Shown here one piece after another: positions 5,708 through 64,000 of a stretch of 64,000 bases of DNA. Under the pieces are notes generated by a model, which saw only the letters and a program-made list of their open reading frames with translations, searched no databases and was not told the DNA's origin. The position numbers and the translations under genes are program-made. The stretch comes from Squalus acanthias (taxonomy: Eukaryota), in the NCBI GenBank assembly GCA_030390025.1, contig JASTWF010000336.1, positions 186,001 through 250,000 of the forward strand. Reading direction: 5' to 3'. Every line of letters begins with the position of its first letter. Position 1 is the stretch's first letter.

Positions 5708-5829
5708 GTATGATTTAAACCCTTGATTTCTCTGACTGCCACCTTTGTTTTTCTCCTTCCTATCTTTTGCTTCTATCCTTGTTTCCCTTTTCTCTGTCTC
5801 CCTGCTCAGGTTCCCAACCCCCTGCTATT

Positions 5830-7272: not shown

Positions 7273-7772
7273 TTGCTCTGTGTCGCCGCCTCTCGTTTCA
7301 TTTCTGACCCAGCTCTGACTGTCAGAGAGATTTTCTACAGAGTCGCGGACATGACTGAAACTGCAGCCGCCGAAACGGCTCCTCCTGCCGCCGTCGCTCA
7401 AACCAAGTCTCCCAGCAAGAAGAAGAAGGTGGCTCCCCGCTCCAAGGCAGCCGGTCCCACGTTGGGCGAGCAGATCCTCAAGGTTGTGGCGGGTGGCAGC
7501 GGTCGCAAGGGGATGTCGCTGGCCGCAATAAAGAAGGCTCTGGCTGCCAACGGCGTCGATGTGCAGAAGCACCGGTCCCAGGTCAATTTAAGTATCAAGA
7601 GGAAAGTGTTAAACGGCTCCCTGGAGCAGACCAAGGGCACGGGCGCCGCGGGCTCCTTCAGGCTCGCTAAGAAGGAATCCCAATCGAAAGAGGGAAAGAA
7701 GGTGAGGAAATAACAACAGAAAACGCTGGAAAAACTCAGCAGGCCAGGCAGCATCCGTGGAGAGAGAAAGAG

Positions 7773-7809
7773 AGTTAACGTTTCAGGTCGATGACCTTTC
7801 ATCAGAACT
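7773..7809 (-). ncRNA. Minimal type I hammerhead ribozyme of the Penelope 3' region
   Basis: Minus strand AGTT-CTGATGA-A-AGGTC atc GACCT-GAAA-CGTT-AACT: both core boxes, stem II hairpin, palindromic AACGTT stem III, AGTT/AACT stem I. Confidence 0.8.
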
Positions 7810-7935
7810 GGGAAGAGCCGGAAATCAAATAGATTTAAGGCCAGGGTAAAGCTGGGAAAAGGGGGAGGGGATAAAGGAACAAAGGTGGAGATGAAGAGAC
7901 ATGCAAGGCTAGAGGTGGTGTTAATGTGACAGATT

Positions 7936-8365
7936 AACATAGAAACATCGAATCTAGGAGCAGGAGTGGGCCATTCGGCCCATTGAGCCTGCACCACCAT
8001 TCAATACGATCATGGCTGATCATTCAAATCCAGTACCCTGTCCCTGGTTTAATCCTCACAGTACACATATCCCACCCGACCCCCGTAACCCCACGTATTT
8101 AATTCCCCCTAACATATCCCATCCTATCCCCATAACCCCACATATTTAATCCCCCCCTAACACTAAGGGTCAATTTATCATAGCCAAATCAACCTAACCC
8201 GCACATTTTTGGACAGTGGGAGGAAACCGGAGCACCCGGAGAAAACCCACGCAGACACGGGGAGAATGTGCAAACTCCACACAGACAGTCACCCGAGGTC
8301 AGATTCGAACCCGGGTCTCTGGCGCTGTGAGGCACCAGTGCTAACCACTATGCCACCGTGTTGCC
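7936..8365 (-). mobile_element. tRNA-derived V-SINE (HE1-like) nested in the Penelope 3' region
   Basis: A box TGGCATAGTGG and B box GGTTCGAATC on the minus strand, V-domain, tail 7936-8045 matching the CR1 3' end at 2754-2862. Confidence 0.85.
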
Positions 8366-8497: not shown

Positions 8498-9384
8498 TTA
8501 TGATCTAAAATTGTTGAACTCGATATTGAGTCCAGAGGGCTGTAGCGTGCCTAAACGAAAGATGAGGTGCTGTTCCTCGAGCTTACGCTGAGCTTCCGTG
8601 GAACAGTGTAATAGGCCGAGGACGGTGAGGTCAGAGTGGGAGTGAAGCGGTGAATTAAAGTGACAGGCCACCGGGAGCTTGGGGTCCCCCTTACGGACTG
8701 AACGGAGGTGTTCCGCAAAGCGGTCACCCAATCTGCGTTTGGTCTCCCCAATGTAGAGGAGTCCACATCGTGAGCAGCGAATACAGTATACTAAATTGCA
8801 GGAATTACAAGTAAATCGCTGTTTCACCTGGAAGGGGTGTTTGGGGCCCTGGACAGTGGGAAGAGGGGAGGTATAAGGGCATGTGTTGCATCTCCTGCGC
8901 GTGCACGGGAAGGTGCCGGGCGAAGGGGAAGGGGTGCTGGGGGTGGTAGAGGAGTGGACTAGGGTGTCGCGGAGGGAGCGGTCCCTACGGAATGCTGAAA
9001 GGGGAGGTGAGGGGAAGATGTGTTTGGTGGTGGGATCACGCTGGAGGTGGCGGAAATGGCGGAGGATGATCCATTGAATTTGGAGGCTGGTGGGGTGAAA
9101 GGTGAGGACAAGAGGAACCCTATCGTGGTTCCGGGAGGGAGGGGCAGGGGTGAGGGCAGATGTGCGGGAGATAGAACGGTCAAGGGCCGTGTCGACCACG
9201 GTAGAGGGGAATCCTCGGTTGAGGAAAAAGGAAGACATGTCGGAAGCACTGGTATGGAAGGTGGCATCATCAGAGCAGATGCGGCGGAGACGGAGAAACT
9301 GGGAGAATGGAATAGAGTCCTTACAGGAGGCGGGGTGGGAGGAAGTGTAGTCCAGGTAGCTGTGGGAGTCGGTGGGCTTGTAGT
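8498..9384 (-). CDS. Penelope ORF C-terminal part (RT thumb/linker + GIY-YIG endonuclease), 5'-truncated
   Basis: YKPTDSHSYL, CxxxxCxxC, LVYCIRCSRCGLLYIGETKRRLGDRFAEH, GLNIEF. Confidence 0.88.
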
Positions 9385-9759
9385 GAAAGAAGGTGAGGAA
9401 ACCGGCAGCCAAGAAATCTGCAGTAAAGAAACCGGCAGCCAAGAAATCTGCAGTAAAGAAACCAGCAGCCAAGAAATCTGCAGTAAAGAAACCAGTAGCC
9501 AAGAAATCTCCAGCCAAGAAAACGATCGCCAAGAAAACGATCACCAAGAAGGCACCAACATCAAAAAAGTCAGCGAAAGTGGCGGCTGGGAAGAAGGTTG
9601 CGGCGAAGAAGCCCAAGAGCCCCAAGAAGACCACAGGCGGAATGGTGAAGGTGGCCAAGAAGGTGGAAAAACCGAAGGCCAAGCCCAAATCAGCAAAGTC
9701 TCAGAAAGCAGCGACCAAAAGAAAGTAAAAAGGACAACTTGTAAACATCTGAACCCAAA

Positions 9760-10105: not shown

Positions 10106-13100
10106 TCAAATCAAAATTTGGAAGTCCGGGGTGACGATGCACTCCAGCCCCCGCGGCGCCCACCGGTCGCGGAAAAACTCAAGCGTGCCGGCGGACACCG
10201 CGTGCTCCATCTCCAGGGCCACCCGGGCGCGAACATGGCCGCGGAAGAGAGGCAGGCAATCGGGCCGAACGACCCCCTCGACCGCCCGCTGCCTGGACCA
10301 ATTAATGGCTTTCTTGGCCAGGCCCAGGAGCAGTCCCACGAGGAGGTCCTCCGACCTACCCGCTCCCCTCCGTACCGGGTGACCGTAGATCAGTAGCGTG
10401 GGGCTGAAGTGCAACCAGAAATTGAGGAGCAGCCCCTTCAAATAATGAAAGAGGGGCTGCAACCTCTCACACACAATATAAATGTGAAAGACGGACTCCT
10501 CCAGGCCGCAGAAATGGCAAGCAGCCTGGGAGTCCGTAAACCTATTTAAAAGCCTATTGCACGGGACTGCTCCGTGCAACACCCTCCAGGCCAAGTCCCC
10601 AATAGAACAAGGGAAGACTCCCGCGTAGAGAGCCCTCCAATGGGGACCTTCGCCTCCGCCGGACGGCAGGATGGTGCGCCAAGGCGTGTCCGGACGGCAG
10701 ACGAAGATGGCAAAGTGGAGAGTGTGCAGGAGCAGCCCGTACAGGAAACGCCTCCGTGCGGATTGAAAGGGCACGGAGGGCATTTCTCCGAGAAGGCTCA
10801 AGTGGTGAGGCGGCGGCTCCCGAGGGAGGATTCGGGGCCGGGCGCCGATAAGGAATTCCGTCCGAACGGGGGTCAGATCGGACGGGATCGCCCCACGTGC
10901 TTGAGCCTCCTCGACACACCTAGTGGAGACGGGGCCCAGTGCCACTTTTAGCGACTCGATGGCTTTGACCGCGAGCCGGACGTTGACCCAGGACATGCGC
11001 CTCGCCAACTCCTCCGGCGCCATCCAGCCCGCTCCTCCGCCATCGAGCAGGTCCCCGACTCTGGTCACCTTACCGGGCACAGCCCTGCCCTCCGCCAGCC
11101 AGCCGAACCCGCGGTCGTGGAGGTGCGGATTCCTGAACAGCGGCTCCCGAAGGACGGCCGCCGCTCCTGACGGGGGAGAACTGCGCTCGGAGGCGACGCT
11201 GTTCCAAACCCATAGCAGTTCCTGGTAGAAGACAGGCAGCTCCCGCAGGCTGGCACGCGTGTCACCCACTCTCACAAACAGGAGCTGCGTGTCGTAATTG
11301 AGGCCGTGCAGCTGGCGGAAGAAATACGTCGCCAGCGCACGCCACCTAGGAGGATTCTCCACGTACAGGTATCTCTGCAGCGTCTGAAGACGGAAAGTCG
11401 CCGCCTGGGTGCGAAGGCACACCAGCGCCTGACTGCCCTCCCTAAGCGGGAGACTCAAAACCGCGGCAGAGACCCAGTGCTTCCTTTTGTCCCAGAAGAA
11501 GTCGACGAGCTTCTTCTGCATCTTGGCGACAAACGCAGGGGGAGGGATCAAAGTGACCAACCGGTACCACAACATGGTGGCCACCAGCTGGTTTATGACC
11601 AGCGCTCGACCCCTGTAGGACAACACTCGGAGCAGTCCTGTCCAGCGCCCTAGGCGAGCGGTGACTTTGGCCTCCAGCTCTTGCCAGTTCGCCGGCCAGG
11701 CGTCCTCGGCCGGGCTGAGGTAGACTCCCAGGTAGAGGAGGTGCGTGGTGCTCCAGGCGAAAGGCCCGAACTCCTCCGGCAGGGAGTCCACCTGCCATGG
11801 GCCCACCAGGAGTCCAGAACATTTCTCCCAGTTGATCTTGGCGGAGGATGCGTCCGAGTAAATCTGCTGGCATTCTCGCATCCTCCGCAAGTCGACGGGA
11901 TCCGTGACCGCGAGGAGCACGTCATCGGCGTAAGCCGAGAGGACCACCTCCACGCCCGGCCCTTGCAGAGCCAGTCCCGTCAACCTCTTCCGCAAGAGGC
12001 GCAGGAAAGGCTCCACGCAAACGGCGTATAACTGACCGCACATGGGGCAGCCCTGACGCACCCCCCTCCCGAAGCGAAGGGGCGCCGTCAAAGACCCGTT
12101 AACTTTAATGAGACACTCCGCGGCGGCGTACAGAAGTCGGATCCGGGCGACGAAATGCGTCCCGAACCCGAAAGCGCGCAGAGTCCCGAAAAGATACTCG
12201 TGATCCACCCTGTCGAACGCCTTCTCCTGATCCAGGGAAAGGAAGGCGACCGACAGACCAGCCCTCTGGGAATGGTGGACCAGGTCCCGGAACAGATGGA
12301 TGTTATCGTGGATACTCCGGCCCAGGACCGTGTAGGACTGGTCGGGGTGGATCATGCGGGCCAGCACGGTGCCAAGGCGAGCAGACATAGCCCTGGCGAA
12401 AATTTTGTAGTCCGTGCTGAGGAGGGAGACCGGGCGCCAGTTCTTAAGTAGGCGGAGATCGCCCTTCTTGGGCAGCAGGACGATGACCGCCCTGCGCCAA
12501 GAGAGGGGCATCTCCCCGGTCGCCAGACTTTCCCCCAGGACCCGCGCGTAGTCGTCCCCCAAGACGTCCCAGAACGCCCTGTGGAACTCCACGGTCAGCC
12601 CGTCCAGCCCCGGGGACTTGCCCCTCGAGAGCTGGCGCAGGGCGCCGGTCAGCTCCGCCAGGCTTAGCGGAGCTTCTAAATTCTCGGCCCCCTCCGGGCC
12701 GACCTTCGGCAGGTCCTCCCACAAAACTCTGCGCGCATCCTCGCTGGACGGATCCGAAGAGAACAGAGCCCCGTAATAGGCCCGGGCCTCCGCGCTGATG
12801 CCCTCCGGATCCGAGACCAGAGATCCGTCGTCGGCCAGCAGCCCCAAGAGCTGCTTACGGACCCCCCGTCTTTTTTCCAGCGAGTAGAAGAAGGGGGAGC
12901 CGCGGTCCAGGTCCCGCAGGAACTGGATCCGCGACCTCACGTACGCGCCTCGGGACCCGACCAGCTGCAGGTCCTTCAGCGCGCCCTTCTTCTCTTCGTA
13001 CACCTTCCGCAGGGCCGGGTCCTCGACGACCTGACCGAGACGGGACTCCAGGTCGAGCACTTCTTTCTCCAATTGGCCGACCCGGGCCTCCCGCCTCTTG

Positions 13101-14005
13101 GTCGACCCCTTCGCGTACTCCTGACAGAAGACGCGGACGTGAGCCTTGCCCACGTCCCACCATAGCCTCAAGGAGGGGAAGCCTCCCCGCTTCCTTCTCC
13201 AGTCGGCCCAGAACCGGCGAAACGAATCCCGGAACCGCGCGTCCTCCAGCAGCAGGTTGTTAAAATGCCAGTACGCGGACCCCCCCCGCGCGCGCAGCGG
13301 AGCGAGCTCCGCCCACACCAGGTGGTGGTCCATGCACGGCAGCGGCCGCATGGAAGCCGCCGGAACGCAGGAGACGTACGCCCGGGAAATGTAAAGGCGG
13401 TCGATTCTGGACCTTCCTCCTCCAGACCTCACGCTCGTGAAGGCGCTGGAGTCGGGATGGAGATTTCGCCAGACGTCCACCAAGTTGAAGGACCCGACCA
13501 GGTCCCGCAACTTCTCCATCGCCGCCGGGCTTCGCGGGGGACCCGACCGGTCCCACGCCTCGAGAGTACAATTGAAATACCCCCCGAGGATGACGCACTC
13601 GCCCACGTCGATGGAGCCCAGAAGAGCGGACACTTCTCCGAAGAAGCGCACTTGCTGCGCACCGGTCCGGGGGGCGTACACGTTCACTAAATGGAGCGGC
13701 ACGCCTCCCAGGCGAACAGTGACCTGGAGCAAGCGGCCCGGCACGTGCTCCTTGACCCTCAAGATCTCCGGCTGAAAATGCGGGGCCAGCAAGACAGCCA
13801 CCCCACAGGAATTGTTGGAGAGGTGACTCATGCTGACCCCTCCTTGCCACTCCAGGAGCCACGTGGCCTCGTCTCCCGGAGCGGTGTGGGTTTCTTGCAG
13901 GAAGCACACCGCATATTTCCCGTCCCGAAGGACCGAGAAGTTATTGAATCTACGGCGCGCCTCCCTGCTGCCGTTGATGTTGAGGCTGGCTATGGTTATC
14001 TTCAT
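10106..14005 (-). CDS. Tx1-B ORF2 (APE endonuclease, RT, C-terminal Zn finger); open, but GDFN is mutated to GYFN
   Basis: SLNING, FLQETH, NWRPVSLL, LDQEKAFDRV, GVRQGCP, YADD, CHFCGLEESVFH. Confidence 0.92.
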   Translation of the reverse strand: MKITIASLNINGSREARRRFNNFSVLRDGKYAVCFLQETHTAPGDEATWLLEWQGGVSMSHLSNNSCGVAVLLAPHFQPEILRVKEHVPGRLLQVTVRLGGVPLHLVNVYAPRTGAQQVRFFGEVSALLGSIDVGECVILGGYFNCTLEAWDRSGPPRSPAAMEKLRDLVGSFNLVDVWRNLHPDSSAFTSVRSGGGRSRIDRLYISRAYVSCVPAASMRPLPCMDHHLVWAELAPLRARGGSAYWHFNNLLLEDARFRDSFRRFWADWRRKRGGFPSLRLWWDVGKAHVRVFCQEYAKGSTKRREARVGQLEKEVLDLESRLGQVVEDPALRKVYEEKKGALKDLQLVGSRGAYVRSRIQFLRDLDRGSPFFYSLEKRRGVRKQLLGLLADDGSLVSDPEGISAEARAYYGALFSSDPSSEDARRVLWEDLPKVGPEGAENLEAPLSLAELTGALRQLSRGKSPGLDGLTVEFHRAFWDVLGDDYARVLGESLATGEMPLSWRRAVIVLLPKKGDLRLLKNWRPVSLLSTDYKIFARAMSARLGTVLARMIHPDQSYTVLGRSIHDNIHLFRDLVHHSQRAGLSVAFLSLDQEKAFDRVDHEYLFGTLRAFGFGTHFVARIRLLYAAAECLIKVNGSLTAPLRFGRGVRQGCPMCGQLYAVCVEPFLRLLRKRLTGLALQGPGVEVVLSAYADDVLLAVTDPVDLRRMRECQQIYSDASSAKINWEKCSGLLVGPWQVDSLPEEFGPFAWSTTHLLYLGVYLSPAEDAWPANWQELEAKVTARLGRWTGLLRVLSYRGRALVINQLVATMLWYRLVTLIPPPAFVAKMQKKLVDFFWDKRKHWVSAAVLSLPLREGSQALVCLRTQAATFRLQTLQRYLYVENPPRWRALATYFFRQLHGLNYDTQLLFVRVGDTRASLRELPVFYQELLWVWNSVASERSSPPSGAAAVLREPLFRNPHLHDRGFGWLAEGRAVPGKVTRVGDLLDGGGAGWMAPEELARRMSWVNVRLAVKAIESLKVALGPVSTRCVEEAQARGAIPSDLTPVRTEFLIGARPRILPREPPPHHLSLLGEMPSVPFQSARRRFLYGLLLHTLHFAIFVCRPDTPWRTILPSGGGEGPHWRALYAGVFPCSIGDLAWRVLHGAVPCNRLLNRFTDSQAACHFCGLEESVFHIYIVCERLQPLFHYLKGLLLNFWLHFSPTLLIYGHPVRRGAGRSEDLLVGLLLGLAKKAINWSRQRAVEGVVRPDCLPLFRGHVRARVALEMEHAVSAGTLEFFRDRWAPRGLECIVTPDFQILI

Positions 14006-14030
14006 CTCAGAAGCATAGTGCAACCTCTAC

Positions 14031-51688: not shown

Positions 51689-52883
51689 AGTAAGGTAGAG
51701 GTTGCACTATGCTCTTGTCATGAAGATAACCATAGCCAGCCTCAACATCAACGGCAGCAGAGAGGCACGCCGTAGATTTAATAACTTCTCGTCCCTTCGG
51801 GAAGGGAGGCATGCGGTGTGCTTCCTGCAGGAAACTCACACCGTTCCGGGAGACGAGGCCACGTGGCTCCTGGAGTGGCGAGGAGGGGTCAGCATGAGTC
51901 ACCTCTCCAACGTTTCCGGTGGGGTGGCTATCTTGCTGGCCCCGCATTTTCAGCCGGAGATCTTGGGGGTCAAGGAGCATGTGCTGGGCCGCTTGCTCCA
52001 GGTCACTGTTCGTCTGGGGGGCGTGCCGCTCCATTTAGTGAACGTGTACGCCCCCCAGCCCGGTGCGCAGCAAGTGCGCTTCTTCGATGAAGTGTCCGCT
52101 CTTCTGGGCACCGTCGACGTCGGCGAGTGCATCATCCTCGGGGGGGATTTTAATTGTACCCTCGAGGCGAGGGACCGTTCGGGCCCTCCGCGAAGCCTGA
52201 CGGCGACGGTGAAGTTGAGGGACCTGGTCGGGTCCTTCGACTTGGTGGACGTCTGGCGAAATCTCCATCCCGACTCCAGCGCCTTCACTTGGGTGGGGTC
52301 TGGAGGAGGAAGGTCTAGAATCGACCGCCTTTATATTTCCCGGGCGTACGTCTCCTGCGTTCCGGCGGCTTCCATGCGGCCAGTGCCGTGCACGGACCAC
52401 CACCTGGTGTGGGCGGAGCTCGCTCCGTTGCAGGCGCCGGGGGGGTCCGCGTACTGGCATTTTAACAACCTGCTGCTGGAGGACGTGCGGTTCCGGGATT
52501 CGTTTCGCCGGTTCTGGGCCGACTGGAGAAGGAAGCAGGGGGGCTTCCCCTCCTTGAGGCTATGGTGGGACGTGGGCAAGGCTCACGTCCGTCTTTCTGT
52601 CAGGAGTACGCGAAGGGGTCGACCAAGAGGCGGGAGGCCCGGGTCGGGCGATTGGAGAAAGAAGTGCTCGACCTGGAGTCCCGTCTCGGTCAAGTCGTCG
52701 AAGACCCGGCCCTGCGGAAGGTGTACGAAGAGAAGAAGGGCGCGCTGAAGGACCTGCAGCTGGTCGGGTCCCGAGGCGCGTACGTGAGGTCGCGGATCCA
52801 GTTCCTGCGGGACCTGGACCGCGGCTCCCCCTTCTTCTACTCGCTGGAAAAAAGACGAGGGGTCCGTAAGCAGCTCTTGGGGC

Positions 52884-54507
52884 TGTAGAATTCGCAATTA
52901 TCGCGATTTCATTTTAATAAGGAGAGAACACAAGTTTCGTTCAAAAACAGCTTTTATTTCAGCGGAATGCTGTCAGGTTTAAATTGGACACAAGCAGCCT
53001 GTAAAATGGCCGCCGCACCGCGTGACAGAACATTCGAGACTTTTCAGCAGGCAGACAAGATGGCGTTCCAATAAACATTTTTTTGCAGGATCGATAACGA
53101 TTCAGCACAGTGAAGACAATACACAGGACATTATGGGTTTACAGTATAAACATCGATACTGGAATCGGTCTCCCAGGTACAAAGGAAAGCCATCAAGGGC
53201 CCATCCAAAGGACATTAATATGTAAACTCCCAACGGCTCTACGATGAGAGAGCCGTTAGCAGGTAGTTATACAGGACACTTGGAAGCCCCAAACCCCTCC
53301 AGGGGGAACACCGACCGATTTAACAATGGGAGAAATATTAGCAGGTACTCAAACATTCAGGAGTAGCCCCGAAACCCATTAAGGACAGAGATCACCCATA
53401 CAGGACATTTTGGGCGCCAAACCTTAAACAAAAGAATGGACATTGTAGTTGGGCGGGAAACGGAAGAACTGTGCACTATAATTGCAGGCCCAAACCGTCC
53501 ATTCGCTCTCTTGCGCTTGCTCTTTTGCTCTTGACTCTTGCCGCTTGCTGCTGTTATCATCGTGGCTGCTCCTGTGTTTTATCCGGTCGATTCGTAACCT
53601 CGTGGCTGCTCCTGGGTAAAAGACTGTTGCAAAGACCTATGTTGGTAGCTGGCAGCGGAACCGAAGGCCCGGGATGAGATGAGATGAGATGAGAGGAGAA
53701 GAGAAGAAGACCTTATCCATCGCCACGGTCAGTAAATCCCGACCGCGCCTGTAGGTCGATCAGCCAAGTCTTCTCGACAGGAAGTTTTCTTCTTTAACAA
53801 GACATATTGCATCGACGATAACTGGACTGTGCAAACACATCGTATCAGTGATATTGACAACGGTGCTCCTCGACTAAACTGTAAAGTCCACCAACAGAGG
53901 TCTTCACTACAGCGGACGGTCCAGCCGACTGACCGAGCAGCAGAAGCAGTAAACAAGTGGGACCAGGAGATCTCCTGACCAACACGTGGGTGCTGCGGTG
54001 AAAAACATCCGATCAGCTATTCGGGATTTCTCCGAGTTATTACGAGTGGTGAGCATGAGTCTCGGGATCCTACGAAGCTAGTTTTAGGATAGTTATTGAT
54101 AGGGGAGGGTTTAAAGTTTAAGGATATTTGTAATGTGTGCCCTATTTACGTTGTGCTGGTCGTTCCTCGTTTCCCTAAGAGTGATTATAACTGTTTGTAA
54201 GATTGTACTGTCATTAATCTGTGCATATGACATGTATTTCATAATTTTAAGTATCATGCAATAAAGATTTTCCATTTCGTACCGTTCAAACCAAGTCTAC
54301 ATGAGTTTTATCTCCATTACTGCTCTCGCATCTAAGTCCAGTGTCTAGAACCGTAAGGGAGAGTGATTCGAACCACTCACAGGGGTGTCTAGTGTTCCCA
54401 GACTGGCTGGAGACCAGGCCTAGACCCGCACTGACATACAGGCTGCACAGAGCCGCGTGAACCTCACAGGCTACGAGACACGCAGGGTCAGGAGAGGATC
54501 CCTTACA
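52884..54507 (+). repeat. 5' LTR (1624 bp)
   Basis: TGTAGAA...CTTACA; TATAA 53477-53481; AATAAA 54260-54265. Confidence 0.97.
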
Positions 54508-54511
54508 GAAA

Positions 54512-56323
54512 ATGGCGACCGCGGCAGGACACTGGCAGCGAGAGGGTAGTGTGTTAGATTTTGGAATGACTGTACGAAATGTGATGCAGGAAAAGATAGC
54601 GGATTACGTATTTGGAAAGGTTAATCTAACGAAAAAGTGGATAAGCGAACTGTTAGCGGATAAGAGCCCACTAGAGGCAGCTGAAAGGTGGACGGATAGT
54701 AAGGAGCATAAAAAGGCAGTTGAGAAAGCAGTCTGGCTTATGTGCTACAAAAGGCAGGTTCAGATTTCAAACCAGACCAATACAGCGCTAACAGCTCGAA
54801 TCAAGCATTTAGAGGAGGAAATGGAGGAGAAGGTTTCTGGAGGGGAGGTGCTCATTAAGAATTTAAATGAGTTACGCCAGGAAAGCCAGGAAGTCTCCAG
54901 TTACCTTAAAACAAGGGTAGAGTATCTCGAGTGCCAGATCACTGAAGCAAAATTGAACGAGAGTAGGATGAAGGAAAGATGTAACCGCCAAGCTGCCCAG
55001 ATAAGAACTCAAGAAGAGAGCTTAATGGGGGTTAGGTCGGCGTATAAGTTGGCCCTTGAGGATAAGTTTCAGGGAGCCGACCATAGCGCCTGCCAAAAAG
55101 AGATAGAGAGCCTCAAAAAGGCCGTGAATAATGCGAACGGCATGGTGTGCCTTATTAATCCGTTGGCACGCCAGCCGCTAGTAAATGAGAGATTTAGAAA
55201 TTCCCCACCAAGTAAAGCAGAAGAAGTAGTAGCCACTGCGCCCTCCGCGCCACCCAGCTATTCAGAAACCTGGGTTAGGGGGGAAGCAACGGAAGAAACA
55301 AAAGAGCCCGTTGAAAAGGAAGTAGAAAAGGGATCGTTGTATCCAGTAACGGGGATTAAAAGGGGCCCAAGCAGAAACGGTGGGGAAGAACCGGGGGATC
55401 TCCTCGGACAGCTGGTGTTGCCTCACAGTTCACATCAGCTGAGAGCCATGATAAACCACGTAAGGAAGCTGACCGAGATAGACGACCCTTCCGTACATTT
55501 TAGGGAAGTTGAGCAAGCCGCAGCCATCAACGGCTGCGATGATGGGGAGACAGCAAAAATGCTGCTGTTCTCTTTAGATAGCTCGGTCCTTCAGTGTCTC
55601 TCAGGCAATAGCAAGAGGGGTAATAAAAGTTATGAGGAATTGAAAAATGAGGTCCTAGAAGTAGTGGGAGCGAACGACGGAGGTCCGTTTGCTAGAGTGG
55701 GACAGACAGTGCAGATGGAGGGAGAACCCCCGAAGGTTTTTGCCGACAGGCTGTGGCCAGTATATGAGCGCAGCTGTCTAGGTGCGCCCGAGCGCGAAGA
55801 TGTGGAAGGCGCCGCTTTAATTCATTGGCTTAGGTGCATAATAGCCAACAGTTTACCAGCCGTTAGAGAGCAGGCAAAAGCCTGGTTCGATCCCAATGAC
55901 CTCAACCTTACGGAAGAGTCGGTCTTGAATCGACTCACGTTAGGTTACCGTAACATAAGGGGTATGACGACACGTCCCTTTAAGGGAAGAGTACATGAGG
56001 TACGACCCGCAGCCCCGGCTCAAAGAGAGTGGCATCAGGAGGGTAATCGCGCCCCACAGGCAAGTAATGCCTGTTACGGGTGTGGGAAGACAGGGCACTG
56101 GCGCAAGCACTGCAGGAACCCTTGGAAGGATTCCAAGGATAAAAATCCCGTGGTCCGAGCCCAGGCGCCTGTCCCGCCTAAGGAAGCAAAGGCACCCACC
56201 TCTCCCGACGACCTCGAAGCAGTGTTAGGAGCCATGCGCAAGATGGTTTTGAATGCGCGTGGACAGGTGGCGGTCGCAACCGGCCCCGTAGGTGCCGCAG
56301 GACCGTCTAATAGTGCCCCATGA
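54512..56323 (+). CDS. gag: Gag-like polyprotein, 603 aa
   Basis: Position after PBS, coiled-coil N-terminal half, PSAPPSY (55241-55261), CYGCGKTGHWRKHC knuckle (56072-56113). Confidence 0.9.
   Translation: MATAAGHWQREGSVLDFGMTVRNVMQEKIADYVFGKVNLTKKWISELLADKSPLEAAERWTDSKEHKKAVEKAVWLMCYKRQVQISNQTNTALTARIKHLEEEMEEKVSGGEVLIKNLNELRQESQEVSSYLKTRVEYLECQITEAKLNESRMKERCNRQAAQIRTQEESLMGVRSAYKLALEDKFQGADHSACQKEIESLKKAVNNANGMVCLINPLARQPLVNERFRNSPPSKAEEVVATAPSAPPSYSETWVRGEATEETKEPVEKEVEKGSLYPVTGIKRGPSRNGGEEPGDLLGQLVLPHSSHQLRAMINHVRKLTEIDDPSVHFREVEQAAAINGCDDGETAKMLLFSLDSSVLQCLSGNSKRGNKSYEELKNEVLEVVGANDGGPFARVGQTVQMEGEPPKVFADRLWPVYERSCLGAPEREDVEGAALIHWLRCIIANSLPAVREQAKAWFDPNDLNLTEESVLNRLTLGYRNIRGMTTRPFKGRVHEVRPAAPAQREWHQEGNRAPQASNACYGCGKTGHWRKHCRNPWKDSKDKNPVVRAQAPVPPKEAKAPTSPDDLEAVLGAMRKMVLNARGQVAVATGPVGAAGPSNSAP
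54513..54530 (+). promoter_or_regulatory. Primer-binding site, tRNA-Arg(UCG)
   Basis: TGGCGACCGCGGCAGGAC is complementary to GTCCTGCCGCGGTCGCCA, the 3' end of a vertebrate tRNA-Arg-TCG as I recall it. Confidence 0.85.
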
Positions 56324-57484
56324 CTAGAGCCCACGCAGCCTGCCTACCTGTGTCCTTTTAAAAGACACGCACAGGAGGGGGTCTGCGGTGAGGAGGCCAG
56401 GTTAAAAGAGCAGGCCTTGCGGGAGGAGAACGCCCGCTTAATAGGGAAAATAGATGGGCTGGAAGGGCAGCTTAGAGAGCAGGCCCTGCGGGAGGAGAAT
56501 GCCCGAGAAATGGGAAAGTTAGACGTGCTCAGGCTAGAAGGGCAGCTTAGAGAGATAAAAGCAGCCTACAGGGTAGCCAAAAGCCGGGAGCATGAGGTTT
56601 TAAAACAGGATAGAAATCTGCAGCCTCCAGCAGGTGAGATTTCACAGAAACAAGCAGGGGCGGTGGCCTGTCTTAAGGGAGGGGCCAGACCTGCGAGTGG
56701 GGAAGCACAGCCCCAGGTAGGACCACAAGGCACACAGGCAGGCATAGCAGCTTGCATCAGGGGAAGGGACATCCCGGACGATCATGCAGCGTTTTTCTGG
56801 AGTTGGGGGTTAGATGACGAAGAACCCAGGGTACCCTGGTCAGATGAGGATAGTGCAGATGAGCATAGTGATGATGACGGGTGGTTTCAGAGGAACGGTC
56901 TGGAAGGATTGGGGCCGCTAGGTAGAGATCCATACGGGGTGGACACACAAGCTGCAGGTCCCGACAGCAGGAGGAAGGAGCTAGAGGAGGCCGGGCCAGC
57001 CGCTATGTGGTTCCCAGAGGTGTGGCCGCCCGCTTTGAACGTCCAGTCCTCAGGGGAGGCAGAGTTCGCGAGTGAAGGGCCGCCTGCTGGGCCGAGCAGG
57101 GCGGGGCCCCGAACTGCCAGCCCCGAGGTTAGGGAGGCGGAGTCAGCGGAGGCGGGGCTGGCGCCTGTGATGGAACCCCAGGTCATCCCGTTGAAGGTCT
57201 CGGGACCCGGTCCGTCCGTCACGGAGCCCCCGCCCATAGCAATTCCCCGTAGGTCAAGCAGAGAACCCCAGCCCAGGAAGATGTGGTCAGGTCCCCAGGC
57301 TGCCCCAGGACGTAAGTTTCAGGTTAAGATAACCCGGGTAGAGACAGGCCACATCGAAGCAGTAACAGGCTGCGGCAGATCAGAGGAAAGGGTCAGCGCA
57401 GCAACAGGCTGCGGCAGATCAGAGGGAAGGGTCAGTGCCCTCCCACCGTCGGGAAGAGCTCGCAGCAGCCTTCTCAGGATTTAA
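56324..57484 (+). CDS. ORF X: unknown protein in frame with gag, probable readthrough extension
   Basis: 386 sense codons directly after the gag TGA; coiled-coil, acidic and Pro-rich segments; no PR/RT/RH/IN motifs seen. Confidence 0.6.
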   Translation, partial: LEPTQPAYLCPFKRHAQEGVCGEEARLKEQALREENARLIGKIDGLEGQLREQALREENAREMGKLDVLRLEGQLREIKAAYRVAKSREHEVLKQDRNLQPPAGEISQKQAGAVACLKGGARPASGEAQPQVGPQGTQAGIAACIRGRDIPDDHAAFFWSWGLDDEEPRVPWSDEDSADEHSDDDGWFQRNGLEGLGPLGRDPYGVDTQAAGPDSRRKELEEAGPAAMWFPEVWPPALNVQSSGEAEFASEGPPAGPSRAGPRTASPEVREAESAEAGLAPVMEPQVIPLKVSGPGPSVTEPPPIAIPRRSSREPQPRKMWSGPQAAPGRKFQVKITRVETGHIEAVTGCGRSEERVSAATGCGRSEGRVSALPPSGRARSSLLRI

Positions 57485-57768
57485 AGGGGCCGCCCTGAGA
57501 ACGGGCGGCATTGTAAAGTTATTAGTTTAAGGTTTTAAGTTTTAGTTTAAAGTTTTAAGTGGTTTTAATAAGGTTAAGTTTGTAGTGTTTGTAACAGAAA
57601 ACGATAAAATGATGGGAGTTTTAAGGCTAGGTTTAGAGGAAGTCTATTTAGCAAACGTTGAAGTTTACGTGAGGCGAGGTCAGGGGACCCGCTCACCCTT
57701 CACAAAAGCCAGAGACTTTTTGCGAGGCTGGCTACCTCATTCTATCTGATCACAGGAACCAAGGAAGG

Positions 57769-60106
57769 ATGGAACGACTCATAGTATTGCTCGCGGCAAT
57801 CGGATGTGGATTGGCCTATCGGGGCCTCACCAAGGATGTCGTGGTGTTTGGATGTTCCGGGGACACGGCCCCCATCGCGGTGGATGGGACCGGGAGACGG
57901 AAGGCAGAAGGGACCAGCACCTATTTCCACAAGGGAAGGTGGCCAGGATGGCTGGGAACGAACTCAACGGAGTATTCCAGCACATCGGGGTTCGCCTACA
58001 AAGAGACTTCTTTAATGTGCCCCAAAGTACGGATCATCGCACCCAGGATCAGCGTCACCGTCGGCAAACGGATTTGTCTGACCTGCAGTGGGAATGTCCC
58101 ATTGAGCCGATGGTGGTGGCTGCGAAAGCTGAGCAAAACTATGAGGAACTCTTCGGTTGAGTGGGAGCGACTGGGTAATAATACCCATCGGACAATTACG
58201 GGGACAGATGGACAAGTGAAAGTCTGTTGGGACAAATGGTGGGAACCAGATGAGGGGATTTATGTTTGTATGTGGGGGTCAAAGTACGTTTGCCCCAAAG
58301 GCATCTCCATATTCTTTATTAACCAGTGGCAGGATAACGGACAGGGGATGAGGTGGGATGCGAGCACCAGGGGGTGCGGAGCCCCATACTCTCCGATCCC
58401 AGTAAATGCCACTGAGCTCATTACGCGCCCACGCAAAGCCCCGCCCACGATTCCGGTAGTTCTAACTGAGGAAGAAGGGTGCCCTAAAACTAGTAAGGGA
58501 CCCGGGAACGGTTTGGTACTGGTCCCCACAGACCAGATACTATTTCAGGGGGTACATTACGCGGTGGCCTCGGTGATTTTAAATCTCACTGAGGTACGGT
58601 TACCAGAGTGGTGCCCCAAAAAGACGGAACAGTTGTACCAGATCCTGTTGACCAAGATGTTCAGGCAATTTTACGAGTTTGATTTTGCAGAAATCGATAA
58701 GACAAGTTTATACACCGCACCGCAGGAAGTTTTGGACCAAGTAGGGAGGCAAAGAAGGGGTTTGGTGAACGATGCGTTCACTGCTTTTAACACAGGGACA
58801 TCTGTGGTCAACGCTCTAGACAGTGTGGAGCTGCAGACCCAGATTAATGGTTTAAAAACACAGTTAAAGGATATTCTTACAGATGAGAATAAAGTGGTAG
58901 GGTCGGGTCTGCACGAGGACCAAGCCATGACACTACACTTAAAAGAGATTATAGCAGAGCTGGAGAAACAGGCGCGTACGGTAAATGCCCTGATTAGGGA
59001 AGATCGGAATGCATCCGATCAAGCTGCGCAGAACGAGGTGTGCGTGCTTTACGGGGCGTGGTTACTGGGCGAGGGCCGCAGTAAAACAAGGTTTGGTCCC
59101 GTCCTGGATAAGTAACAAACACCTGCGGGCGCTCCACCCTTTTCAGAATGCATTAAGTCCGTGCCAGCTCAGGCTAGCTTCAGAAGCTTACCCAGTCCCC
59201 GTGGACTGCGGACGTTCAAACCATACTATTATGGGAATAGTATTACGCATGCCGGTTTTGGGCAACACAGCAAAGCCCGCCCCGGTATATCGGGTAGAGA
59301 ACATTGGTGTCATTCAGGGGGGAGCCCACATTCGTTATGCAGCGGTTCCACCTTACGTCATCCGCTGGGAGCAAACGATGACAGGTACAGATCTCTCTGG
59401 TTGTCGTGGCAGGGGAGCACACATAATACTGTGCCCCCAGCACTTGAATGCCTTTTTAACACCACAGTGCGGGTTCAGAACGGCTGGCGCCAAGTCCATG
59501 AATTGCACCATGGAGGCAATGGCACAAGATCATGTGCCTCCGCAGGTAGCATACATCGGGGGTGGAACATATTGTGTTACCACTGCAGCGCAACACTACC
59601 AGCATGGAAACCGTAGCCGGTGTCCGGTGAGTGACAGCAGTTTCTGTTTTAAACCCAGGGCTGAAGTTCAAGTAGCACAACAGCGAATTATCCCAATCCC
59701 TGAACCATCCACTGTTCATCTCACAGTAAAAGAGAGTTTTACCGACTTGCAGCGATTTGTCGCACATTTTGGGTACCTCATTCCCCCTCTCCCCGAGCAT
59801 TTAACCAAACTTCTAAAAGCCGTCGCGGTGTCACAAAAGCATTTCTATACATTAGAACAGAAAACCGTCGAGATAGGTACAGACATTTTGGACATAGTGG
59901 TTCCACCGTGGTGGAATCTGTTCACGAATATTGAAGTGCCCTCATGGGTCAGAATAGCCTCCCACATTTTAGTCGTCTGTCAAGTGTTTATTGTAGTATA
60001 CCTTTTGTTCATACATTGTAAAAGAGACAAGCGCCTCACCAAGCATGAGAACACGGGAGAGTGGCGAGAACGTTACGTGCGCGTGCACGATGAGAGCGCA
60101 GTGTAA
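57769..60106 (+). pseudogene. env: Env glycoprotein (signal peptide, Ig-like domain, class I fusion protein, TM), frameshifted near 59080
   Basis: MERLIVLLAAIGCGLA, CLTC..W...DEGIYVC, furin site RQRR 58747-58758, heptad repeat, Cys-rich region, TM ILVVCQVFIVVYLLFI. Confidence 0.85.
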
Positions 60107-60521
60107 TGGGAAGATGGCGTCACTCCCGCTCGCCACGTGCGCCGCGGAAGTTTGTACTCAGTGTAAATACGTTGGAAACTCGACATGTTTAAGAGTCGGG
60201 ATTTGTTTATTTTGGTGATGGTGTTGATTGTTTGGTTTTTGGGTTTTGTTTTTCCTTCCCTTGAATAAAAGACAAATATACAGGTGATGCGTGAGGTATC
60301 GGCCTGGTTACGCCGGGAAGGAAAACAAGTGGTGTAAGTTTAAGGGCAAATGATGCCTACGGTGATATAAAGTGTGATTTTTTTCTTGGGAAATGAGGAC
60401 GACACAGAGACCCTAGTGAAGTTAAAATTTTATGGGATTAATTTACTGGATTCGGAGTGAAATCGAGATAAGATTGCTCACCACTGAGATTTTTGATACG
60501 ATAAGCGGAGTTATTCGCATC

Positions 60522-60533
60522 AACAGGAGGGAC
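60522..60533 (+). promoter_or_regulatory. Polypurine tract
   Basis: AACAGGAGGGAC immediately before the 3' LTR. Confidence 0.75.
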
Positions 60534-62157
60534 TGTAGAATTCGCAATTATCGCGATTTCATTTTAATAAGGAGAGAACACAAGTTTCGTTCAAAAACAG
60601 CTTTTATTTCAGCGGAATGCTGTCAGGTTTAAATTGGACACAAGCAGCCTGTAAAATGGCCGCCGCACCGCGTGACAGAACATTCGAGACTTTTCAGCAG
60701 GCAGACAAGATGGCGTTCCAATAAACATTTTTTTGCAGGATCGATAACGATTCAGCACAGTGAAGACAATACACAGGACATTATGGGTTTACAGTATAAA
60801 CATCGATACTGGAATCGGTCTCCCAGGTACAAAGGAAAGCCATCAAGGGCCCATCCAAAGGACATTAATATGTAAACTCCCAACGGCTCTACGATGAGAG
60901 AGCCGTTAGCAGGTAGTTATACAGGACACTTGGAAGCCCCAAACCCCTCCAGGGGGAACACCGACCGATTTAACAATGGGAGAAATATTAGCAGGTACTC
61001 AAACATTCAGGAGTAGCCCCGAAACCCATTAAGGACAGAGATCACCCATACAGGACATTTTGGGCGCCAAACCTTAAACAAAAGAATGGACATTGTAGTT
61101 GGGCGGGAAACGGAAGAACTGTGCACTATAATTGCAGGCCCAAACCGTCCATTCGCTCTCTTGCGCTTGCTCTTTTGCTCTTGACTCTTGCCGCTTGCTG
61201 CTGTTATCATCGTGGCTGCTCCTGTGTTTTATCCGGTCGATTCGTAACCTCGTGGCTGCTCCTGGGTAAAAGACTGTTGCAAAGACCTATGTTGGTAGCT
61301 GGCAGCGGAACCGAAGGCCCGGGATGAGATGAGATGAGATGAGAGGAGAAGAGAAGAAGACCTTATCCATCGCCACGGTCAGTAAATCCCGACCGCGCCT
61401 GTAGGTCGATCAGCCAAGTCTTCTCGACAGGAAGTTTTCTTCTTTAACAAGACATATTGCATCGACGATAACTGGACTGTGCAAACACATCGTATCAGTG
61501 ATATTGACAACGGTGCTCCTCGACTAAACTGTAAAGTCCACCAACAGAGGTCTTCACTACAGCGGACGGTCCAGCCGACTGACCGAGCAGCAGAAGCAGT
61601 AAACAAGTGGGACCAGGAGATCTCCTGACCAACACGTGGGTGCTGCGGTGAAAAACATCCGATCAGCTATTCGGGATTTCTCCGAGTTATTACGAGTGGT
61701 GAGCATGAGTCTCGGGATCCTACGAAGCTAGTTTTAGGATAGTTATTGATAGGGGAGGGTTTAAAGTTTAAGGATATTTGTAATGTGTGCCCTATTTACG
61801 TTGTGCTGGTCGTTCCTCGTTTCCCTAAGAGTGATTATAACTGTTTGTAAGATTGTACTGTCATTAATCTGTGCATATGACATGTATTTCATAATTTTAA
61901 GTATCATGCAATAAAGATTTTCCATTTCGTACCGTTCAAACCAAGTCTACATGAGTTTTATCTCCATTACTGCTCTCGCATCTAAGTCCAGTGTCTAGAA
62001 CCGTAAGGGAGAGTGATTCGAACCACTCACAGGGGTGTCTAGTGTTCCCAGACTGGCTGGAGACCAGGCCTAGACCCGCACTGACATACAGGCTGCACAG
62101 AGCCGCGTGAACCTCACAGGCTACGAGACACGCAGGGTCAGGAGAGGATCCCTTACA
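60534..62157 (+). repeat. 3' LTR (1624 bp)
   Basis: Copy of 52884-54507 at offset 7650; no differences noticed by eye. Confidence 0.97.
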
Positions 62158-64000
62158 GGGCTGCTGGCCGACGACGGATCTCTGGTCTCGGATCCGGAGG
62201 GGATCAGCGCGGGGACCCGGGCCTATTACGGGGCTCTGTTCTCTCCGGATCCGTCCAGCGAGGATGCGCGCAGAGTTTTGTGGGAGGACCTGCCGAAGGT
62301 CGGCCCGGAGGGCGCCGAAGAATTGGACGCTCCGCTAAGTTTGGCGGAGCTGACCGGCGCCCTGCGCCAGCTCTCGAGGGGAAAGTCCCCGGGGCTGGAC
62401 GGGCTGACCGTGGAGTTCCACAGGGCGTTCTGGGACGTCTTGGGGGGCGACTACGCGCGGGTCCTGGGGGAAAGTCTGGCGACCGGGGAGATGCCCCTCT
62501 CTTGGCGCAGGGCGGTTATCGTCCTGCTGTCCAAGAGGGGTGATCTCCGCCTTTTAAAAAACTGGCGCCCGGTCTCCCTCCTCAGCACGGACTATAAAAT
62601 TTTTGCCAGGGCCATGTCTGCCCGCCTCGGCACCGTGCTGGCCCACATGATCCACCCCGACCAGTCCTACACGGTCCCGGGCCGGACAATCCACGACAAC
62701 ATCCATCTGGTCCGGGACCTGGTCCACCTTTCCCAGAGGGCTGGTCTGTCGGTCGCCTTCCTTTCCCTGGATCAGGAGAAGGCGTTCGACAGGGTGGATC
62801 ACGAGTATCTCTTCGGGACTCTGCGCGCATTCGGGTTCGGGACGCATTTCGTCGCCCGGATCCGACTTCTGTACACCGCCGCGGAGTGTCTCATTAAAGT
62901 TAACGGGTCTTTGACGGCGCCCCTTCGCTTCGGGAGGGGGGTGCGTCAGGGATGCCCCATGTCCGGTCAGTTATATGCCGTTTGCGTGGAGCCTTTCCTG
63001 CGCCTCTTGCGGAAGAGGTTGACGGGACTGGCTCTGCAAGGGCCGGGCGTGGAGGTCGTCCTCTCGGCTTACGCCGATGACGTGCTCCTCATGGTCACGG
63101 ATCCCGTCGACCTGCGGAGGATGCGAGAATGCCAGCAGATTTACTCGGACGCATCCTCCGCCAGGATCAACTGGGAGAAATGTTCTGGACTCCTGGTGGG
63201 CCAGTGGCGGGTGGACTCCCTGCCGGAGGAGTTCAGGCCCTTTGCCTGGAGCACAACACACCTCCTCTACTTGGGAGTCTACCTCAGCCCTGCCGAGGAC
63301 ACCTGGCCGGCGAACTGGCAAGAGCTGGAGGCCAAGGTCACCGCTCGCCTAGGACGCTGGACGGGGTTGCTCCGAGTGTTGTCCTACAGGGGTCGAGCGC
63401 TGGTCATAAACCAGCTGGTGGCCGCCATGTTGTGGTACCGGTTGGTCACTTTGATCCCTCCCCCTGCGTTTGTCGCCAAGATACAGAAGATGCTCATCGA
63501 CTTCTTCTGGGACAAAAGGAAGCACTGGGTCTCTGCCGCGGTTCTGTGTCTCCCGCTTAGGGAGGGCGGTCAGGCGCTGGTGTGCCTTCGCACCCAGGCG
63601 GCGACTTTCCGTCTTCAGACGCTGCAGAGGTACCTTTACGTCGAGAATCCTCCCAGATGGTGTGCGCTGGCGACGTATTTCTTCCGCCAGATGCACGGCC
63701 TCAACTACGACACGCAGCTCCTGTTTGTGGAATTGGGCCGCACGCGAGCCTACCTGTGGGAGCTGCCTGTCTTTTACCAGGAACTGCTATGGGTCTGGAA
63801 CCAGGTCGCCTCCAGGCGGAGTTCTCCCCCGTCAGGAGTGGCGGCTCTCCTTCGGGAGCCGCTGTTCAGGAATCCGCACCTCCACGTCCGACGGATCGGC
63901 TGGCTGGCGGAGGGCAGGGCTGTGCCAGGCAAGGTGACCAGAGTCAGGGACCTGCTCGATGGCGGAGGAGCGGGCTGGATGGCGCCAGAGGAGTTGGCGC

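Follow-up and report, generated by a model that had tools for sequence, protein, structure and literature searches.

INTRODUCTION

Several endogenous retroviruses (ERVs) are known to spread in a form that lacks part of the viral genome. The mouse IAP 1-delta-1 form (PMC6466679) keeps gag and pol fused in one open frame despite an internal deletion, and it spreads with its helper or even beyond it. In recKoRV and KoRV, the D and C types of bovine ERVK[2-1-LTR], and ETn and MusD (PMC6112702, PMC10924933), a central helper segment is replaced by a piece of an older retroelement between common flanks, the defective form relying on complementation in trans. Zebrafish BHIKHARI elements (Bik-1 and Bik-2; bioRxiv 10.1101/2024.03.25.586437) are young pol-less long terminal repeat (LTR) elements whose Gag, of ~600 aa, has a coiled coil. 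Here we describe a pol-less LTR element of the shark Squalus acanthias that keeps gag and env. It occupies 52884-62157 (+) of the window, a stretch of 64,000 nt (contig JASTWF010000336.1, positions 186,001 to 250,000, assembly GCA_030390025.1) to which all coordinates refer.

We consider it probable that this element is the high-copy, pol-less form of an ERV in which a gag-derived cassette replaces the enzymes in frame, a form likely copied by a helper and likely refreshed by recombination with it.

RESULTS

Helper and copy numbers

From 40 listed gag matches 20 were examined, and eight of these carry ~3.7 kb of extra sequence after the gag stop, in six cases as one open reading frame (ORF) of 1500 aa. 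This filled pol slot encodes protease (PR), reverse transcriptase (RT), tether, ribonuclease H (RNase H) and integrase (IN), and outside it the helper is ~98% identical to the window copy. Exact junction 21-mers number at least 1296 for the pol-less form and at least 972 for the helper, with none in controls, and a 4-bp target-site duplication (TSD) flanks eight of nine pol-less and five of six helper copies with both ends resolved. A first-pass annotation, made from the letters of the window, had proposed a young, non-autonomous element with Pol available from a helper and had recommended a search for sibling copies and for that helper; both were found, in the same genome. Enzyme genes are absent while the LTR, primer-binding site (PBS) and polypurine tract (PPT) are common with the competent form, as in a helper-dependent ERV, and the junction counts and TSDs are those of integrase-type amplification.

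The cassette is also covered by contigs of four out of four independent runs, each from a different study (that these contigs represent RNA is our guess), and the pol-less form is therefore no assembly artefact. One run contig spans 56233-56696, from the gag stop to the cassette end, and loose ends in the run contigs show helper-type junctions as well. At one locus (L006) two pol-less copies stand in tandem with a common LTR, the first with env deleted.

An older, second helper family (L120, L127, L129, L131) has Pol proteins 77-85% identical to those of the young helper, Gag being only 45-50% identical. It too holds both forms, with the cassette in 16 and pol in 4 of 20 copies. The junction is of the TGA-CTGG class in both copies inspected.

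Contents of the pol slot

The first-pass annotation listed an ORF X between gag and env. It is not an independent gene but the pol slot, open in the gag frame directly behind the gag TGA and composed of 11 pro codons, the 342-bp cassette and 262 codons of a post-integrase tail. The cassette takes the place of ~3.7 kb of pol and has an internal 69-nt repeat. Compared by eye, the pol stub at 56324-56355 is nearer to the second helper family than to the co-resident helper. No PR, RT, RNase H or IN family was found in any of the four internal ORFs (Pfam, E<=1), and a six-frame motif scan of the interior gave no YxDD and no integrase zinc finger, just scattered chance-type matches of 3-4 residues. 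The description of the interior as Pol-less thus stands for catalytic domains and fails for pol sequence as such: the annotation had staked its reading on there being no Pol remnants in 56324-57768, and the stub and the tail (56698-57484) both lie there in the pol frame.

The tail (7348-8134 in helper locus L004) encodes ~260 aa of low complexity. It is the fastest-changing coding part (69-99% nt identity), has in-frame indels in both forms and found no match among eight related Pol proteins.

The gag stop stands in the context TGA-CT(A/G)G in 40/40 pol-less and 30/30 helper copies. UGA-CUA defines the type II class of stop readthrough (PMC13517186), and the gag stops of both forms are presumably read through. 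Over the 110 nt from the stop the mean folding z is -2.15 for 43 unique pol-less copies (against mononucleotide shuffles) and 0.12 for the helper.

Older copies have a longer form of the cassette (173 exact matches), which aligns to Gag residues 144-217 with scores of 113-130 vs shuffle maxima of 61-72; in each of six comparisons none of 1000 shuffles scored as high. The short cassette of the window scores only 53-63 against three Gags, and direct BLASTP of ORF X against Gag gave no match, so that the homology is clear in the long form only. Most young copies have lost the 3′ half of the cassette. A search for the donor found no true gag with the cassette sequence; in all 14 long-form loci the cassette follows a gag, whether complete or broken.

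Of 40 copies, 19 allowed the tail anchor to be placed, and 18 of these have it in frame. The anchor occurs at six different spacings (300-510 nt), and there are four types of junction to the tail. ORF X is open in all ten copies with LTR identity of at least 99.7%, and reaches at least 298 aa in 31 of 40.

Interleaving of the two forms and probable passage between families

On a tree of the gag capsid (CA) region, with 37 pol-less and 29 helper rows, the pol-less/helper state changes 15 times, at least ten of the changes being forced by starred branches; on an env tree (36 and 29 rows) it changes 14 times, at least nine of them forced. The two forms alternate on both trees from the oldest through the youngest subfamilies, and the smallest starred set that holds the window copy on the gag-CA tree comprises 11 helpers and three pol-less copies. 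The label is still more clustered than in shuffles (15 vs 21.8 changes for gag, 14 vs 21.5 for env). What the first-pass annotation called a satellite is not an unrelated passenger but a version of the helper itself, altered by deletion and replacement, that recombines.

The same cassette also occurs in backbones of the two families. Between L104 and L113 it is 98% identical in aa, with a proportion of synonymous differences (pS) of 0.03 (2/63), where gag CA is 53% identical with pS 0.72. All 12 between-family pairs, drawn from seven copies, repeat this, with cassette pS of 0.03-0.12 vs gag pS of 0.71-0.82; the cassette is 91-98% identical across the divide and gag is saturated. Pol differs between families at pS ~0.6 in PR, RT and IN and 0.4 in RNase H. 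A nearly identical cassette in backbones with saturated gag and diverged Pol indicates that the cassette most likely moved between helper lineages by recombination.

Selection

For variants shared among pol-less copies the ratio of nonsynonymous to synonymous changes (N/S) is 0.27-0.29 in gag and env and 0.62 at the tail start (p 0.049). For the cassette it is 0.58 (p 0.09, 41 codons) and 0.71 (p 0.12, 102 codons), with p 0.09-0.16 overall. An open frame is found for ORF X in all of the ten youngest pol-less copies, for env in nine and for gag in eight.

Gag and Env

A Gag homolog in skate is 51% identical, and homologs of both Gag and Env carry skate and sawshark names. Gag has a weak Pfam match to zf-CCHC, and its best feature clusters in a language-model atlas are of the Retrotrans_gag/Ty3_capsid type (0.94-0.95). 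Pfam reported neither a capsid family nor an F family in the element or helper proteins. Single-sequence structure prediction gave a mean predicted local distance difference test score (pLDDT) of 39.3 for Gag and an unusable fold for Env (33.5).

At 54508-54530 the gag start codon overlaps the PBS. With no leader between PBS and gag, a packaging signal would have to sit in gag or in the long LTR. Both Gag homologs start with MAT too, and the overlap may be conserved beyond the window copy.

In correction of the first-pass annotation, env is in the window copy not one ORF but two overlapping frames, 57769-59115 and 58994-60106. The break, within ~59065-59101, is seen in none of 68 sibling loci; its 23-mer has one further genomic occurrence, in an older 87%-identical copy that is not a locus duplicate. 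This private frameshift may be a base-calling slip. Env has a signal peptide, an Ig-like stretch, an RQRR cleavage site and a transmembrane segment near the C end; the Ig-like stretch falls in the surface part at ~58030-58270 (Pfam Ig_3, E 0.28; JAM and antibody chains, E ~1). Its best atlas cluster is PF00523, the fusion protein F of Mononegavirales (0.93, 205/256 features), which is the sole basis for calling it F-like: helper Env did not match the Pfam F family at E<=1, and PDB sequences gave no F match at E<=10, the top matches having E ~1.

RT affiliation and the lokiretrovirus question

The first-pass annotation labelled the element lokiretrovirus-like with an Env related to F. Of this the F-like Env is supported by atlas features and the membership is not supported, the helper RT falling with Retroviridae. 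Lokiretroviruses are marked by an RT clade sister to all other retroviruses and by an IN close to CGIN1/NYNRIN. They (PMC7947760) also have an F-like Env with furin site, a dual RNase H and a coiled coil at the Gag start; the shark elements share the last two and, as far as the atlas features go, the first, and differ in RT clade and RT motifs. Three database proteins, two from an eel record set, served as Loki proxies; they were chosen by motifs in the available supplement of that paper and are not the published set.

In a careful tree of 37 hand-picked rows the helper RT is placed with the retroviruses (100/98), apart from the three Loki-motif RTs (100/98 and 100/99), and groups weakly with frog and coelacanth ERVs (85/91). 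Forcing it into a clade with the Loki-motif RTs is rejected (approximately unbiased (AU) test, p=0.009). A further RT tree, of 121 rows, is a quick tree, and no foamy-virus row was identified. RT identity is 35-38% to Loki-motif proteins, 42% to a protein like that of the snakehead retrovirus (SnRV) and 51% to frog and coelacanth ERVs, and in the supplement alignment its motifs look like those of SnRV and unlike the Loki rows. Helper IN scores 192-214 bits against two full-length Loki-motif proteins vs 130 against the SnRV-like one, and its nearest named matches are 'NYNRIN-like'; in an IN tree (two short rows dropped) the base is unresolved and the helper lies outside the Loki-motif pair. Helper Pol has a tether and a second RNase H (PF17917/PF17919, then PF00075), which are common to all retroviruses and therefore not diagnostic. 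With gag, pol and env between LTRs and an RT that goes with ortho- and ERV-L-type retroviruses, the helper belongs to Retroviridae proper, in a basal clade of lower-vertebrate ERVs whose exact position is weakly supported. Only the F-like Env would be Loki-like; the element seems to resemble a Loki-style enveloped element in its working, and we do not class it there.

Insertion site and neighbourhood

Feature coordinates are collected in Table 1. The two LTRs of 1624 bp end in TG...CA and align with 0/1624 differences between flanking GGGC repeats, as the first-pass annotation had it, and the PBS and PPT that it reported are likewise present: the PBS, 5 nt from the 5′ LTR, is over 18 nt exactly complementary to the 3′ end of a genomic tRNA-Arg(TCG), its final 15 nt and CCA, and a short, interrupted purine run precedes the 3′ LTR. 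Substitution rates of sharks are slower than those of mammals, which would lengthen an age estimated at a mammalian rate. At the mammalian rate of PMC7947760, zero LTR differences suggest an age of less than ~0.4 million years.

The insertion interrupts the ORF2 of a unit that belongs to a tandem array of long interspersed nuclear elements (LINEs) with endonuclease (EN) and RT, and the empty site with one GGGC is seen in four of the four sister units of the window. The array (16787-64000) is head-to-tail, with units of ~7.8 kb that are 98-99.6% identical, several with an open EN-RT frame of 1306 aa, spaced by short 174-bp repeats. We take these units to be Tx1-like. The window also holds an inverted LINE unit at 10106-14026 (-), 92% identical to the array, a truncated EN-RT frame at 3752-5824 (-) and a GIY-YIG frame at 8498-9700 (-), presumably Penelope-like. 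Elsewhere in the genome, tRNA-Arg(TCG) genes form long tandem arrays with a period of ~1.62 kb (L081-L083; G000:C26, ~39-42 Mb); the 3′ motif of this tRNA has 435 matches, and tRNA-Ser(GCT) is also present in both tRNA array loci scanned.

Table 1. Features of the element and of its insertion site in the window
Feature	Coordinates	Strand	Remark
Left TSD, 4 bp	52880..52883	.	GGGC; empty site in 4/4 sister LINE units
5′ LTR, 1624 bp	52884..54507	+	same sequence as 3′ LTR
PBS, tRNA-Arg(TCG)	54513..54530	+	overlaps gag start codon
gag, 603 aa: N-terminal coiled coil, capsid-like region, one CCHC knuckle	54512..56323	+	
TGA-CTAG readthrough-type stop context	56321..56327	+	same as helper gag-pol junction
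pol stub, first 11 codons	56324..56355	+	pol frame, common with helper
342-bp cassette, diverged gag coiled-coil fragment, shortened	56356..56697	+	absent from helper
Post-integrase pol tail	56698..57484	+	98-99% identity to helper
env, F-type-like	57769..60106	+	frameshifted near 59065-59101 in window copy
PPT, short	60521..60533	+	interrupted
3′ LTR, 1624 bp	60534..62157	+	same sequence as 5′ LTR
Right TSD, 4 bp	62158..62161	.	GGGC
Host LINE ORF2, 5′ part	51699..52883	+	interrupted; resumes 62158-64000

DISCUSSION

Proposed course of events

Onto the observed anatomy, helper, copy counts, interleaving and recurrence of one cassette in differing backbones we would place the following course of events. 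Pol-less RNA would be packaged together with helper RNA or with helper Gag-Pol, tRNA-Arg would prime it, and helper IN would insert the copy. Template switching on either side of the pol slot would pass the cassette on to every helper subfamily as it arose, and would once have carried it between the two helper families. The UGA-CUAG signal would yield a small amount of Gag-X in place of Gag-Pol. The cassette would most likely persist by an advantage in cis (a shorter genome, a kept readthrough signal and an open frame) and not by protein function.

Several points weigh against this reading. Transcription, readthrough and mobilisation are predictions from sequence. Both DNA trees, that of gag and that of env, were built quickly, with branch support from the Shimodaira-Hasegawa-like approximate likelihood ratio test (SH-aLRT) only. 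Sampling relied on exact 21- or 24-mers from the junction or cassette and so inflates cassette similarity. Within the young family, divergence over the initial 95 nt of the cassette tracks that of gag at roughly half the rate, as it does at the start of the helper protease, so constraint and not transfer accounts for part of the cassette's conservation. A hairpin is predicted after the stop, and two-sided pair changes number 0/21 in pol-less and 1/26 in helper copies. Cassette N/S is not significantly below 1. Purifying selection on gag and env of pol-less copies may be a legacy of the helper backbones; as the backbones appear renewed from the helper, it does not prove that these two genes must be supplied by the pol-less copies themselves.

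Alternative explanations

An alternative that we hold to be possible, if less likely than its opposite, is that Gag-X is functional, an extra Gag-type coiled coil and a Pol tail favouring the packaging or copying of their own RNA in cis. The frame held across four junction types and six spacings, the readthrough context retained in 40/40, the homology of the cassette to the Gag coiled coil, its N/S ratios below 1 and the precedent of the IAP 1-delta-1 fusion protein (PMC6466679) all fit such a role. Those ratios fall short of significance, however, most young copies are without the cassette 3′ half, and the open frame may instead be selected against RNA decay. A bolder and slightly less likely version makes the cassette a selfish variant of the pol slot, old enough to have outlived several helper turnovers. 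This gag fragment would pass by recombination to every new backbone, also between families whose Gag is only half identical, and would favour its own genome through Gag-X made by readthrough, as a parasite of an enveloped, non-Loki retrovirus with an F-like Env. To do without transfer one would need a single pol-less lineage beside the helper, with the cassette under strong constraint at the RNA level while gag and env change fast. The ladder-like gag tree with its continuous gradient, the rise of cassette distance with gag distance and the mean folding z of the 43 unique copies speak for this, but pS 0.03 over 90 codons beside saturated gag and Pol at 0.6 calls for constraint beyond that of RT, and the nine to ten or more changes forced on two trees need recombination regardless; we judge it quite improbable.

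Membership in the lokiretroviruses, which would extend that group to cartilaginous fish, is very unlikely and largely refuted. It would account for the F-like Env, the N-terminal coiled coil of Gag (cf. zebrafish Bik), the dual RNase H and the higher scores of helper IN with Loki-motif proteins than with the SnRV-like one. The RT tree, the AU test and the lowest RT identities oppose it, Gag has no similarity (E<=1) to the long Loki-motif polyprotein P0024, and F-like fusogens are also reported from foamy viruses (PMC11468914) and Ty3/gypsy elements (bioRxiv 10.1101/2023.10.26.564294). In PMC7947760, lokiretroviruses were found in none of three cartilaginous-fish genomes. As for an assembly artefact or a one-off deletion, the private env frameshift could be of that kind; for the pol-less structure the notion is refuted, with next to no probability left to it, by the junction matches, the distinct TSDs and the contigs of four runs. 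Our preferred reading remains a helper-copied, recombining pol-less form.

Comparison with known systems

A literature search, with most subscription journals and Repbase outside it, found nothing on this ERV family or on a gag cassette replacing pol. The available parts of PMC12440569 and PMC10435555 do not describe the family, and a term search of PMC9040795 found, in the part available, nothing on sharks, PBS or stop codons.

The in-frame gag-pol arrangement with stop readthrough and the RT motifs are alike in SnRV-related ERVs of clade Huo (PMC6001957), although the helper does not group directly with the SnRV-like protein (see the frog and coelacanth grouping above), and its stop is UGA-CUAG vs UAG-GGC in SnRV. 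Pol-less Athila elements (PMC2410132) are also non-autonomous, with intact ORFs under purifying selection and recombination between distant families; Athila is a plant Ty3/gypsy element, the shark element a vertebrate retrovirus. Bik has gag only and is Loki-related, unlike the shark helper by its RT.

Defective ERV forms have been proposed to drive their helpers extinct (PMC10924933). Here both forms have ~1000 copies, and their alternation over the full length of the gag and env trees means that the two have persisted together while their sequences changed greatly; one genome suffices to test helper-parasite dynamics. ERV screens based on RT would overlook more than half of this family, and an F-like Env is not diagnostic of a lokiretrovirus.

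Part of gag and all of env are missing from IAP 1-delta-1, whereas the shark element has the whole gag, keeps env and carries a foreign gag fragment behind a readthrough-type stop. In the recKoRV, ERVK[2-1-LTR] and ETn types the defective forms retain no intact gene; in the shark element the exchange is confined to the pol slot and keeps the frame, complementation in trans would apply as well, and, unlike in those types, the same piece recurs over subfamilies and two helper families. The element is thus of a known kind, that of IAP 1-delta-1, recKoRV, ETn and Bik, with an unusual build: gag and env are kept, and an in-frame, gag-derived filler stands behind a readthrough-type stop.

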